Positions 26,724 through 33,736 of a stretch of DNA of 64,000 nucleotides are shown here, in pieces. The DNA is from an uncultured Acidimicrobiales bacterium. Lineage in GTDB: Bacteria > Actinomycetota > Acidimicrobiia > Acidimicrobiales > SHLQ01. The notes beneath the pieces are model-generated. The model was given only the letters and a program-made list of their open reading frames with translations, did no database searches and was not told the origin of the DNA. The stretch spans positions 48,402 to 112,401 of the forward strand of contig CAZFBD010000002.1 in assembly GCA_964517125.1 (NCBI GenBank), written 5' to 3'. Positions within the stretch are counted from its first letter, which is position 1; the number at the start of each line of letters is the position of its first letter. Made by a program: the position numbers and the translations under genes.

Positions 26724-27869
26724 TCAGCTTCCGAGGAGCTCCCGAAGGCCGAACTCGTTGATGAGGCCCTCCATGTCCGAGGGGAACACGCCCAACTCTT
26801 CGTATGCCTGCAGCTCAACTGCGGCTTCGTCGAGACGGTCGAGTCGGCGGAAAACGAAGGCGCGGAACACTCGGGCATCGGGGTAGTCGGGGTCGGAGGC
26901 CACGGAGGCGTCGAGCCAGCGCTCGGCATCGCCGAACAGTTCTTCGGCACCCGACTCGGCGGTGAGCGCGAGCGTCCATCCCCGCCACGCCAGCGCCGGC
27001 GCGTGGTCCTCGTCGGCCTCGAGAATGCCATCGAAGATGGCAAGTGCCGTCGCCGGGTCGGCCAGCTGCACGAAAGTCTCGCCGGCCACCTGCGCCTGCG
27101 CCAGACTGATGCCCTCGGCGGCGAAGTCGATGGGTTCACCCGACTCGATCAGCGGCAGGATCGTTGCCAGTGCAATTCGTTCGCGCAGCTGCCGTTGCGT
27201 CACCAGCTGCTGAGCCACGGGCGACGGGTTCGATGCGTCGAACAGCGCAAGCTCGTCGGCCGCATCGGTGAAGTCTTCGCGGTCGAGCGCCGCCACGGCC
27301 CGGAAGACCCGAACGTCGGAGAACTCCGGGTCGAACTCGATCGCCGTGTCGAAGTCGACTGCCGCGGCGTCCTTGTCGCCGAGCTGGTATCTCAGCCAGC
27401 CGCGGTAGGTCAATGCCTCGACGTTCGTTGGCTGGATCTCCAGCACTTCGGAGTACAGCTCGATCGCACGATCGGGGTCGCCAGAGGTGAACGCGGCTCC
27501 GGCGTCTGCCAACAAACTGACGGTGCTCAGACGAATCTCACCACTGATCTCATCACCTGCGCCGCGGGCTCCGGAGAAGGTGGTCATGGCGAACGCTGCC
27601 AGGCCGGCCACGGCAACCACGGCACCGACCCAGAGAATCGTGCGGCCGATTGGCCGACGCTCTCGGCTGCGGCGGCGCACCTGACCGTTCTCGAGCGCCC
27701 GGCTCAGTTGGGCGGCTCGGGCGGTGTGGTCGTCTCGGAGCGTGGCGTAGTCGTCGGTCTCCAGGTCGCCGGCAGCATGTTCGGCGTCGAGGTCGTCGAG
27801 GGAGACAAGGAGATGATCGAGTTCCTCGCTCAGGCGTTCCCGCTCGCTGCGGGTGAGCACCTCATCCAT
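26724..27869 (-). CDS. ccmI: TPR-repeat cytochrome c maturation accessory protein (CcmI/CycH-like)
   Basis: 381 aa with an N-terminal coiled region, one TM segment (ILWVGAVVAVAGLAAFA) and then TPR repeats. An 8-nt overlap joins it to ccmH, and it is the last gene of the ccm operon. Confidence 0.65.
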   Translation of the reverse strand: MDEVLTRSERERLSEELDHLLVSLDDLDAEHAAGDLETDDYATLRDDHTARAAQLSRALENGQVRRRSRERRPIGRTILWVGAVVAVAGLAAFAMTTFSGARGAGDEISGEIRLSTVSLLADAGAAFTSGDPDRAIELYSEVLEIQPTNVEALTYRGWLRYQLGDKDAAAVDFDTAIEFDPEFSDVRVFRAVAALDREDFTDAADELALFDASNPSPVAQQLVTQRQLRERIALATILPLIESGEPIDFAAEGISLAQAQVAGETFVQLADPATALAIFDGILEADEDHAPALAWRGWTLALTAESGAEELFGDAERWLDASVASDPDYPDARVFRAFVFRRLDRLDEAAVELQAYEELGVFPSDMEGLINEFGLRELLGS

Positions 27870-28329
27870 CGGAGCGTTCTTGGCGCAAGCGGGCGACGAG
27901 GTCCTCGTCGGCCTGGCTGGCCTCGTGGGTCTCGGCGTTGCGCCACTTCATGAACACCGCGGTAAGGCCAGCGAACCCGAACACCATGGCGAACACCGGG
28001 AGGACCCAAACGAGCCCAACGATGCCACTGGCCCGTGGTCGCAGGTCGATGGATTCGTCGTAGCTGGCGATGAGGAAGTCGGTGATCTCCTCATCGGTCT
28101 CGCCGGCATCGACCTGGCGACGGATCTCCAGGCGGATCTCCTGCGCCACGACAGCGTTGGATTCGGCGACCGACTGGCCGTCGCAGGTTGGGCAGGCGAA
28201 GTCTTCGGACAGCGCACGCACCCGGTCCTCGTTGGTACGCGGTGGCCCATCGACCTGCGTGGACAACACGAGCGCGGAAAGCGCTGCTGCCACCACGACG
28301 AGCCAGGCAATTCGACGACCGCTGGTCAT
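27862..28329 (-). CDS. ccmH: Cytochrome c-type biogenesis protein CcmH
   Basis: 155 aa with a signal/TM segment, then FACPTCDGQSVAESNAVVAQEIRLEIRRQV (the CcmH LRCxxC-type motif) and a C-terminal TM segment. Confidence 0.85.
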   Translation of the reverse strand: MTSGRRIAWLVVVAAALSALVLSTQVDGPPRTNEDRVRALSEDFACPTCDGQSVAESNAVVAQEIRLEIRRQVDAGETDEEITDFLIASYDESIDLRPRASGIVGLVWVLPVFAMVFGFAGLTAVFMKWRNAETHEASQADEDLVARLRQERSDG

Positions 28330-28904
28330 GAGCTCAACCCGGCAAGTCGGGCAATCTCGGCGTCGAGACCCAGGGCATCGACCCCGCCAATGAACTTCGA
28401 CACGATCACGCCGGCCGGGTTCACGATGAATGTCTCGGGCACCGCAGCCACGCCATAGCCGATCGCGTAGCGGCCGGTGTCCGACGCCAGGACCGGCCAG
28501 TCGCCGCCGTTCTCCTCGAAGAACTCGGCCACGTTCGCGCGGCTGTCGCTGAACGCAACGCTCACGACAACGGCATCACCAATCTGCTCATGGCGCTCGC
28601 TGAACTGGATGAGTTCCGGGTGTTCCTCGATGCAGGGAATGCACGTGGTCTGGAAGAAGTTCACGACCACCCATTTCCCACGTTCGTCGGCCAGCGAGAA
28701 GGTGCTGCCGTCCAGGGTCTCGCCCTCGATCTGCGGCGCAGCCTGGTTGAGCAACGAGCTGCGCGGCACACCGCTGTCGCCTTCAGAGGTGGCAAGCACG
28801 GCGATGAACAGCCCCAGCACCAGGGCAACCGGGATCGAGACCCAGAACGCCAACCGGTTCGGCCCGGAACTGACCTCGAGCGGCTGGCCTTCGTCGTTGG
28901 TCAT
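28326..28904 (-). CDS. ccmG: Thiol:disulfide oxidoreductase CcmG/DsbE (TlpA family)
   Basis: The start at 28904 gives MTNDEGQPLEV...; the track ORF is N-terminally over-extended. The thioredoxin motif is FFQTTCIPCIEEHP. ATGA overlaps occur with ccmF (28901-28904) and ccmH (28326-28329). Confidence 0.85.
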   Translation of the reverse strand: MTNDEGQPLEVSSGPNRLAFWVSIPVALVLGLFIAVLATSEGDSGVPRSSLLNQAAPQIEGETLDGSTFSLADERGKWVVVNFFQTTCIPCIEEHPELIQFSERHEQIGDAVVVSVAFSDSRANVAEFFEENGGDWPVLASDTGRYAIGYGVAAVPETFIVNPAGVIVSKFIGGVDALGLDAEIARLAGLSS

Positions 28905-32431: not shown

Positions 32432-33096
32432 CCCTCTTCCATGAGTGCGCCGTGGCCGACCGACCCCAGCGCCAGATACAGCAGTGCGAAACCGACGAGC
32501 GAAAGCAGCCAGGACCAACCGTCGGTGGCGACAGATCCCATTGCGTCCCCGAACGCGCGTGATGCGCTGATGACAACCGGAGCAAGGACGGGCAACAACA
32601 GGATTGGCAAGATGGTCTCCCGGGCACGCTGACCAGACAGCAGCGCGCCATAGAGCGTACCTGCGGCGCCCACGCCGATGACCGCCGCAACCGTGGTCAA
32701 CAACAGCAGCGCCACATCGTCCACGGGAGCGGCGTAGAGAATCAGAACGCCGCCGAGCAACACGAGTGCAAGGAGCAGCAGCTGGGCGATGAGCGCCAGC
32801 GCTTTTCCAAGGAACACCGACGCCGGATGCAGCCCCGACATGAGCAGGCCTTCGTCGGCGCCGTCACCATCCTCGAGCGAGACCGACCGGTGTACTGCAA
32901 GCAGCGCAGAAAGCACCACGGCGACCCAATAGAGGCCTGGGGTGAATGTGGCGAGCGTGGCGCTGTCGGCATCGAGGGCGAACCCGAACAGAACCAGCAC
33001 AAGCAGAGCGAAGGGCACGACCTGGTTCAGGGCAACCCGTGAGCGCATCTCCACCCGGAGGTCCTTTCCGGCGACGAGCATGATGTCAGCCAGCAT
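32428..33096 (-). CDS. ccmB: Heme exporter permease CcmB
   Basis: The start at 33096 gives MLADIMLVAGKDLRVEMRSR.... The protein is ~222 aa and polytopic, and it overlaps the ccmA stop by 11 nt. Confidence 0.85.
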   Translation of the reverse strand: MLADIMLVAGKDLRVEMRSRVALNQVVPFALLVLVLFGFALDADSATLATFTPGLYWVAVVLSALLAVHRSVSLEDGDGADEGLLMSGLHPASVFLGKALALIAQLLLLALVLLGGVLILYAAPVDDVALLLLTTVAAVIGVGAAGTLYGALLSGQRARETILPILLLPVLAPVVISASRAFGDAMGSVATDGWSWLLSLVGFALLYLALGSVGHGALMEEG

Positions 33097-33736
33097 GGGC
33101 TTCCTCCATGACGAGGCCGCCGGCGATCGTGACCTGTCGGTCGACCACGGGGCGGACGCGGTCCAGTTCATGGGAGGCCACCAGCACGGTGGCTCCCGCG
33201 GCGGTCGCATCGCGGATCAGATCGTCGACGACGTCGCGTCCAGCCTGGTCGAGGCCGGCGTGTGGCTCGTCGAGGAGCCACAGTTCGGGACGTCGCGCCG
33301 CTGCGACGGCGAGTGCCGTACGTCGCCGTTGGCCGGCCGAGAGCTGTCGGGTCGGTACGTCCATGAGCCGGGCATCGATGCGCATGCGTTCCACGGCGCT
33401 GTCGAGCTCACCATCGGTGGCCCCAACCGCCCGCGCCCAGAAGCGCAGGTTCTCCTGAACCGTGAGGTCGTCATAGAGCATGGTCTTGTGGCCGACGAGT
33501 CCGACGCGGCGGCGGATCGCTCGGCGTTCCGTGTGCAGATCGTGCCCGAGAATCTGCCCTTCGCCGGTGTCGGCCCGGTGCAGGCCGGCGCACAGACGAA
33601 GCAGCGTGGACTTTCCCGCACCGTTTGGCCCCTGCAGCAGGACGGACTCGCCCGGGTTCACGTCGAGGGTCGCGCCAGCAAGTGCTGGGAACGGTCCAAG
33701 CAGGACCACGACGTTGCGAATGGACACCACCGACAC
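33086..33736 (-). CDS. ccmA: Heme ABC exporter ATP-binding protein CcmA
   Basis: 216 aa with Walker A GPNGAGKSTLL, ABC signature LSAGQRRR and Walker B LWLLDEP. Confidence 0.9.
   Translation of the reverse strand: MSVVSIRNVVVLLGPFPALAGATLDVNPGESVLLQGPNGAGKSTLLRLCAGLHRADTGEGQILGHDLHTERRAIRRRVGLVGHKTMLYDDLTVQENLRFWARAVGATDGELDSAVERMRIDARLMDVPTRQLSAGQRRRTALAVAAARRPELWLLDEPHAGLDQAGRDVVDDLIRDATAAGATVLVASHELDRVRPVVDRQVTIAGGLVMEEAHAG

Follow-up and report, generated by a model that had tools for sequence, protein, structure and literature searches.

The 64-kb stretch of DNA analysed here (hereafter the window) comes from an uncultured Acidimicrobiales bacterium and carries nine colinear open reading frames (ORFs) on the minus strand, which span positions 33736 to 26724. 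Together they form a complete System I cytochrome c maturation (Ccm) operon. The original prediction, made from the sequence alone, had described such a complete, colinear operon, and the Pfam and NCBIfam assignments, the gene order, and the motifs bear this out. Chance cannot account for family-specific matches that follow the canonical order. The gene boundaries were set from homology, mapped start codons, and public gene calls on identical metagenome contigs. Gene calling based on the GC content at third codon positions (GC3) was unspecific at 65% GC and mis-called several of the ccm genes; those calls were therefore replaced by homology and the public calls. The genes, with their assigned or predicted roles, and the region upstream of them are as follows.

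33737–33894, no strand: divergent intergenic region between ccmA and a sortase gene, 158 bp; presumed promoter region of the operon
33086–33736, minus strand: ccmA, 216 amino acids (aa), GTG start; ATPase of the heme-release ATP-binding cassette (ABC) complex
32428–33096, minus strand: ccmB, 222 aa; ABC permease subunit
31601–32431, minus strand: ccmC, 276 aa; WWD-domain heme-handling membrane protein
31437–31604, minus strand: ccmD-like gene, 55 aa; small single-pass membrane protein, so named from its position, size, and one hydrophobic helix
30853–31437, minus strand: ccmE, 194 aa; membrane-anchored heme chaperone
28901–30853, minus strand: ccmF, 650 aa; core of the heme lyase (holocytochrome c synthase)
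28326–28904, minus strand: ccmG-type thioredoxin gene, 192 aa; membrane-anchored, CIPC motif
27862–28329, minus strand: ccmH, 155 aa; thiol-reducing partner of CcmF, CPTC motif, C-terminal membrane helix
26724–27869, minus strand: gene of a tetratricopeptide repeat (TPR) membrane protein in the CcmI position, 381 aa; placed by its position and TPR content

Neighbouring genes overlap at all eight junctions: by 11 nt at A/B, by an ATGA sequence (4 nt) at B/C, C/D, F/G, and G/H, by a TGATG sequence (1 nt) at D/E and E/F, and by 8 nt at H/I, where I denotes the TPR gene. Such overlaps had been predicted, and the ATGA at G/H is now added to their list. A GGAGGA Shine-Dalgarno sequence precedes the start of ccmB, and the public gene calls, which are independent, give the same protein lengths. 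Because their start and stop codons overlap, the nine genes are probably read from a single, translationally coupled transcript. A scan of positions 26300–34100 found no match to the sigma-70 consensus and no internal terminator-like site of note. In comparison with the closest relative (locus L001 of the sample described below), the ratio of nonsynonymous to synonymous substitution rates (dN/dS) is 0.06–0.22 for all nine genes, which are all under purifying selection.

The nine proteins and the known maturation systems

The proteins were assigned with Pfam and NCBIfam models at their curated cut-offs, and weaker NCBIfam matches were listed at E ≤ 0.001. CcmA exceeds the cut-off of the ccmA equivalog model TIGR01189 (150 bits, cut-off 131.6), also matches PF00005, and is 38% identical to E. 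coli CcmA by BLASTP. Its translation contains the Walker A motif GPNGAGKST and the signature motif LSAGQ. CcmB matches PF03379 with 90.7 bits (cut-off 24.9) and shares 32% identity with the E. coli protein. CcmC matches PF01578 above the cut-off, as well as TIGR01191, and is 39% identical to E. coli CcmC. When the two CcmC proteins are aligned (PDB 7F02), the WWD segment WGRPIWNTYWRWD lies opposite WGKPMWGTWWVWD, YVHVP opposite YLHVP, and TLHQQ opposite TLHQG. We take the histidines in YVHVP and TLHQQ to be the counterparts of the E. coli heme ligands His60 and His184.

CcmF is matched by both PF01578 and PF16327 (CcmF_C) above the curated cut-offs. It aligns with Thermus thermophilus CcmF (PDB 6ZMQ) at 439 bits across residues 3–633, and its full-length identity to E. 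coli CcmF is 35%. The WWD segment WGGYWAWDPVEN and four histidines, located in FHPP, FIHS, SVHAF, and IVHIG, are conserved in the alignment with 6ZMQ. Two of these histidines presumably serve as periplasmic heme ligands and the other two as transmembrane ones. The exact CcmF sequence is already present in NCBI, JGI, and ENA, and its name at JGI is CcmF.

CcmE is recognized by PF03100 with 30.9 bits (cut-off 24.6), and its residues His169 and Tyr173 sit in the sequence VKHDNDY, which holds the HxxxY motif. A phmmer search of the PDB and a BLASTP comparison with the E. coli protein found nothing, as CcmE of the window is too divergent for these methods. A profile of 36 Acidimicrobiia orthologs was matched to E. 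coli CcmE by hhalign with 98.5% probability (E = 1.6e-15), and this alignment runs from the membrane anchor to KHDNDY, which lies opposite KHDENY of the E. coli protein. The H-x3-Y pattern is found in 38 of the 40 Acidimicrobiia orthologs. Compared with E. coli CcmE, the proteins of this clade have an insertion of 19 residues (approximately 137–155) immediately ahead of the final strand and the HxxxY tail, and a cytoplasmic N-terminal extension of approximately 30 residues. A conserved cysteine (AASCG) was observed in the C-terminal tail of CcmE from the window and from L001, L002, and L003.

The two thiol-active proteins are identified at different levels of specificity. CcmH matches PF03918 with 98.2 bits (cut-off 25) and shares 33% identity with E. 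coli CcmH. Its CPTC lies opposite CPKC in the alignments with the structures 2HL7 and 2KW0, the profile of the clade was matched to E. coli CcmH by hhalign with 99.2% probability, and a CxxC is present in all 41 orthologs. The CcmG-type protein matches the broader Pfam families AhpC-TSA, Redoxin, and Thioredoxin_8, and its score with the DsbE model TIGR00385 is 72 bits, below the cut-off of 123. Its matches in the PDB include ResA, CycY, and CcmG/DsbE; the identity to E. coli CcmG is 28%, and the CxxC is kept in 40 of 40 orthologs. From these matches, the protein has a thioredoxin fold and is assigned to the TlpA/ResA/DsbE family, as a member and not as a proven equivalog. The hallmark motifs that had been noted at the outset, WGRPIWNTYWRWD, WGGYWAWDPVEN, KHDNDY, CPTC, and CIPC, are all intact in the translations.

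The remaining two proteins are placed by context. The 55-aa protein has no match in the Pfam scan, and its score with TIGR04391 (CcmD_alt_fam) is 19.8 bits, below the cut-off of 24. It was found by tblastn in 19 Acidimicrobiia loci, with a dN/dS of 0.12, and by analogy it may play the role of CcmD. The TPR protein consists of an acidic cytoplasmic N-terminus of approximately 75 aa, one transmembrane helix, and extracytoplasmic TPRs. In Pfam it matches generic TPR models only, its PDB matches are consensus or designed TPR proteins, and no CcmI model matches it in NCBIfam at the threshold given above. Its gene lies directly 3' of ccmH in most Acidimicrobiia loci, and its dN/dS is 0.16. The class-wide conserved positions of the two ORFs and the purifying selection on them show that they are real operon genes. 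The TPRs together with the membrane anchor, the overlap with ccmH, and the class-wide position suggest that the TPR protein may act like CcmI. The label "CcmI-like" in the original prediction is overstated: it draws on position and TPR content, and NCBIfam, the PDB, and hhalign gave no homology specific to CcmI.

Among the known maturation systems, the operon is closest to the canonical System I of E. coli, together with CcmI of Rhodobacter capsulatus and the T. thermophilus CcmF structure 6ZMQ; its components and their order match those of the E. coli operon. Both WWD domains, the presumed heme-ligand histidines of CcmC and CcmF, the HxxxY of CcmE, and both CxxC motifs are kept. The differences from E. 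coli lie in the host, which here belongs to a phylum of the Gram-positive type, and in the details of several proteins. Each extracytoplasmic component seems, from inspection of the translations by eye, to be anchored to the membrane by a hydrophobic segment. CcmH is short, and the TPR part is encoded by a separate gene as in Rhodobacter. CcmE differs by the insertion and the extension described above, and the CcmD-like protein is not recognisably homologous to CcmD. The TPR protein has a single membrane helix and a cytoplasmic N-terminus, with no detectable CcmI homology.

System I*, which is found in archaea and Desulfovibrio, has a CcmE with CxxxY and lacks CcmH (PMC3601427, summarising Allen et al. 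2006). The operon in the window shares the CcmABCEF core with it; however, CcmE has the histidine (His169 of HxxxY) and ccmH is present. Therefore, the operon belongs to canonical System I and not to System I*.

System II of Mycobacterium, Corynebacterium, and Bacillus (ResB/CcsB, ResC/CcsA, CcdA, and ResA) leads to the same end product. Its ResC shares the WWD-domain superfamily PF01578 with CcmC and CcmF, and the CcmG-type protein of the window resembles ResA and CcmG to the same degree. However, System II has neither the covalent CcmE intermediate nor the ABC release complex, both of which would be used by the pathway here. Pfam detected no ResB (PF05140), no WWD protein of the ResC/CcsA type, and no CcdA (PF02683) among approximately 45 scanned ORFs of the window, and no extra ORF with a WWD motif was present in 80 related loci.

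Host, distribution, and origin of the operon

Rfam and tRNA scans found no rRNA or tRNA genes in the window, and the host was placed by protein relatives. CcmF relatives at 64–90% identity are named "Acidimicrobiales bacterium" or "Acidimicrobiia bacterium", and over the range of 54–90% almost all of the named relatives belong to Acidimicrobiales or Acidimicrobiia. The Mrp/NBP35 gene (2782–3924), 25 kb away, provides an independent marker: its named matches at 91% and 78% identity are Acidimicrobiales, and Mrp relatives at 96% and 84% identity lie on contigs equal in length (41,917 and 633,634 bp) to those with the CcmF relatives at 90% and 82%. Other genes of the window encode a sortase, Septum_form and DUF5317 proteins, an Lhr helicase, a ClpP pair, a WS/DGAT protein, and an Eis-like acetyltransferase, a set that fits an actinobacterium. 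By these sequence comparisons, the contig is assigned to the order Acidimicrobiales of the phylum Actinomycetota, and the actinobacterial origin that the original prediction had considered apparent is upheld by the relatives of both CcmF and Mrp. One CcmF (P0015, 80% identical) and one Mrp (P0179, 85%) carry the label "Verrucomicrobiales bacterium"; they most likely derive from Acidimicrobiales contigs that were mis-binned into a public Verrucomicrobiales metagenome-assembled genome (MAG).

A scan for CcmF with one genome per species gave at least 599 confirmed CcmF-encoding stretches, and the best 80 of these were examined as loci L001–L080. Approximately 45 of the best 80 are from Acidimicrobiia of several families, including Aquihabitans sp. 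G128 and Iamia (Iamiaceae), Acidimicrobium, Acidimicrobiaceae, Ca. Poriferisodalis, and Ca. Aldehydirespirator. When the nine proteins of the window were used as tblastn queries, the order A-B-C-(D)-E-F-G-H-TPR was found in L001–L043, L046, and L050, that is, in essentially every Acidimicrobiia locus unbroken by a contig end. The same nine-gene order is seen in Aquihabitans sp. G128 (NZ_CP077604.1), Iamia, Acidimicrobium, and Ca. Poriferisodalis, and the operon of MAG-179 (JAHDEJ010000040.1) encodes a CcmF with 90% identity to that of the window. The sortase gene (33895–35115, plus strand), which is divergent from ccmA, is kept in approximately 20 Acidimicrobiia loci down to approximately 55% CcmF identity (L001, L003–L005, L008, L011–L014, L016, L017, L025, L026, L030–L033, L036, L040, L046, and L050). 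These Acidimicrobiia operons differ from that of the window only in sequence divergence and in the downstream neighbour. Septum_form and DUF5317 genes often come after the ccm-adjacent sortase gene.

The rarity implied by the original prediction is thus not borne out. In the best 80 of the at least 599 stretches, System I with this gene order is the norm for the class; therefore, the operon is lineage-typical and already catalogued, the outcome that the original prediction itself had named as its refutation. It is a textbook canonical System I operon that public databases already annotate, ordinary for its class and not new biology.

Loci of other kinds also occur in the phylum. Among the best 80 of the at least 599 stretches, ccm clusters were also found in the class Actinomycetes, namely in Tersicoccus, Amycolatopsis, Pseudonocardia, and Haloechinothrix. 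A second CcmF clade in a neighbor-joining tree comprises Microthrixaceae, two Acidimicrobiia MAGs, Tersicoccus phoenicis, Haloechinothrix, Amycolatopsis ultiminotia, and Pseudonocardia, and the gene order in this clade is mostly F-H-(I)-G. In L051 (Microthrixaceae), an ORF of 645 aa with five CxxCH motifs (4932–6866) lies directly upstream of ccmF. L080 (Nocardioidaceae) falls elsewhere in the tree, with the order F-G-H and an ORF of 440 aa with three CxxCH motifs. Such clusters may serve as lyase systems dedicated to multiheme cytochromes, in hosts that otherwise rely on System II. The loci concerned are L051, L061, L062, L066, L069, L071, L077, L079, and L080.

The view that Actinobacteria use System II holds for the model genera, since model Actinomycetes do use this system (PMC9145763; PMC13170271). 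However, it does not hold for the phylum, in which Acidimicrobiia and some Actinomycetes carry ccm genes. In published reviews, System I belongs to Gram-negatives, archaea, and plant mitochondria, whereas Gram-positives and mycobacteria are given System II (PMC3601427; PMC13170271), a division that is kept in reviews from 2011 to 2026. The literature that we searched nowhere says explicitly that System I is used by Acidimicrobiia; the sole trace is a "CcmABC heme exporter" mentioned in passing in the genome description of Actinospongicola (PMC12263773). The distribution of System I in Actinomycetota is under-reported.

The operon is very probably a housekeeping System I operon that has been inherited vertically within Acidimicrobiia. 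Its GC content is uniform with its surroundings (0.637–0.659 over 26–34 kb, compared with 0.621–0.678 across the window). In the same neighbor-joining tree, which was built quickly, is midpoint-rooted and so in effect unrooted, and is without support values, the CcmF proteins of Acidimicrobiia, including that of the window, form one clade apart from those of Gemmatimonadota, Myxococcota, Limnocylindria, and Deinococcales. The uniform GC content, the kept gene context, the single CcmF clade, and the low dN/dS argue for a long vertical residence in the class. The same evidence supports the earlier remark that the cluster matches its surroundings in GC content and does not look like a recent transfer.

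Several observations count against this picture of a housekeeping System I operon. The NCBIfam equivalog models for CcmB, CcmC, CcmE, CcmF, DsbE, and NrfF all score below their cut-offs, which is due to divergence from the proteobacterial seed sequences. By hhalign, the 55-aa protein has no homology to E. coli CcmD (2% probability), nor does the TPR protein to the TPR region of E. coli CcmH (residues 215–259; 2%). The window encodes no c-type cytochrome substrate, with CxxCH occurring only in three non-coding frames, and no CcdA or DsbD reductant importer is present among its scanned ORFs. The limits of the CcmF tree given above also belong here, as does the sample of the best 80 of at least 599 stretches, which sets the scope of the class-wide conclusion.

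The division made in the reviews cited above, together with the finding that the nearest CcmF proteins outside the class are those of Gemmatimonadota, Myxococcota, Limnocylindria, and Deinococcales at 41–46% identity, could suggest that an actinobacterium otherwise using System II recently acquired a proteobacterial or deinococcal ccm operon. We rejected this explanation, which is extremely improbable. The GC content of the operon is indistinguishable from that of its flanks, and the operon is kept together with the divergent sortase gene in relatives from 90% down to approximately 55% CcmF identity. In addition, the Acidimicrobiia CcmF proteins form one clade apart from those of other phyla, and no mobile-element genes were seen beside the cluster among the Pfam-scanned neighbouring ORFs. 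A different function has also been considered, in which the F-G-H-TPR part is an NrfEFG-type lyase for one unusual heme site, such as the CxxCK in NrfA. The best NCBIfam matches are indeed NrfE for CcmF (TIGR03145, 418.9 bits) and NrfF for CcmH (TIGR03147, 60.6 bits), and multiheme ORFs adjoin ccmF in the other actinobacterial loci L051 and L080. However, the cut-offs of these two models (927.3 and 159.2) are far above the scores, and the generic CcmF/NrfE model scores equally well (418.3). The lyase genes share one overlapping operon with ccmABCDE, neither nrfA nor a CxxCH or CxxCK protein lies nearby in a real frame of the window, and no second general ccmF was seen in the window or in the flanks of approximately 8 kb on each side of the matched ccmF in the related loci. 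The dedicated lyase was therefore rejected as very unlikely.

An ancient event is a different matter. The operon may have been transferred from another phylum into the stem of Acidimicrobiia and then handed down vertically, with System II as the ancestral state of Actinomycetota, or conversely System I may have been ancestral and replaced in Actinomycetes; we regard such an event as quite possible, if short of probable. The split of the phylum between model Actinomycetes with System II (PMC9145763; PMC13170271) and Acidimicrobiia with System I is in its favour, and the second actinobacterial CcmF clade with the order F-H-(I)-G indicates that ccm clusters have moved or been duplicated within the phylum. 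However, the direction is unpolarised, as Rubrobacteria, Thermoleophilia, and Coriobacteriia lie outside the sample and the tree is midpoint-rooted without support values. For the present genome, an ancient transfer is compatible with the vertical, class-typical inheritance of the operon.

Other genes in the window

A gene at 17489–26722 (plus strand), convergent with the ccm operon, encodes a predicted surface protein of 3077 aa with Laminin_G_3, right-handed beta-helix, nine He_PIG Ig-like, and Big_9/cadherin-like domains and a hydrophobic C-terminal segment. Its stop and that of the TPR gene are 1 nt apart. The next gene after the TPR gene in L002 and L003 is that of an ATP-dependent DNA ligase, whereas the 3077-aa gene intervenes in the window; therefore, the approximately 11 kb with the giant gene are a variable insert. 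Even L001, the closest relative, has only a counterpart of the 3077-aa protein with 32% identity. A 949-aa ORF at 12883–15732 (minus strand) encodes an ATP-dependent DNA ligase in its C-terminal half and lies near the gene of a large Lhr-type helicase (7682–12001, minus strand, 1439 aa). The relatives in L002 and L003 match this ORF only at residues of approximately 446–930, and the first 445 residues represent an additional domain or result from an over-extended ORF.

The region at 45759–51817 holds a cluster for the synthesis of neutral or storage lipids, encoding GpsA, an acyl-CoA synthetase (AMP-binding), two acyltransferases, one of them carrying a HAD domain as a fusion, and a WS/DGAT wax-ester/triacylglycerol synthase. 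A 433-aa ORF at 54017–55318 (plus strand) has weak matches to a reductive dehalogenase subunit family (PF13486, E = 6e-07) and to 4Fe-4S dicluster domains.

Predicted pathway and meaning for Acidimicrobiia

The activity of the operon is predicted, with the established model of E. coli, Rhodobacter, and Thermus as its template. CcmC and the small CcmD-like protein would offer heme at the external WWD domain to the membrane-anchored CcmE, which is predicted to bind it covalently through His169 of HxxxY. The CcmAB ATPase would then free holo-CcmE. On the outer face of the membrane, CcmF, with its WWD domain and b-heme histidines, and CcmH, with its CPTC, would attach the heme to reduced CxxCH motifs. 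The CcmG-type thioredoxin (CIPC) would hand reductant to CcmH and the apocytochrome, and the TPR membrane protein is probably an apocytochrome-binding chaperone analogous to CcmI. We infer these biochemical steps, including the covalent attachment of heme and what the 55-aa and TPR proteins do, by analogy with that model.

The modest value that remains in the finding lies in the under-reported distribution of System I and in the non-homologous TPR partner in the CcmI position. The shorthand that equates Actinobacteria or Gram-positives with System II is corrected, because a conserved Ccm operon is typical of one whole actinobacterial class, and ccm clusters of a second type occur in some Actinomycetes. 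This is useful for annotating the respiratory chains of marine and soil Acidimicrobiia, and it is relevant wherever the type of maturation system serves as a taxonomic or drug-target argument.

A broader proposal, to which we would give somewhat less than even credence, is that Acidimicrobiia as a whole rely on System I only, with ResB and ResC absent, all extracytoplasmic parts tethered to the membrane, and a non-homologous TPR partner replacing CcmI. They would then be a large lineage, within a phylum of the Gram-positive type, that runs the Ccm pathway. A split of Actinomycetota between the two systems is not stated in the reviews cited here, which keep System I Gram-negative, archaeal, and mitochondrial (PMC3601427; PMC13170271). 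If the proposal is true, Actinomycetota would be cleanly split between two maturation systems, and the switch between System I and System II could be placed on the actinobacterial tree.

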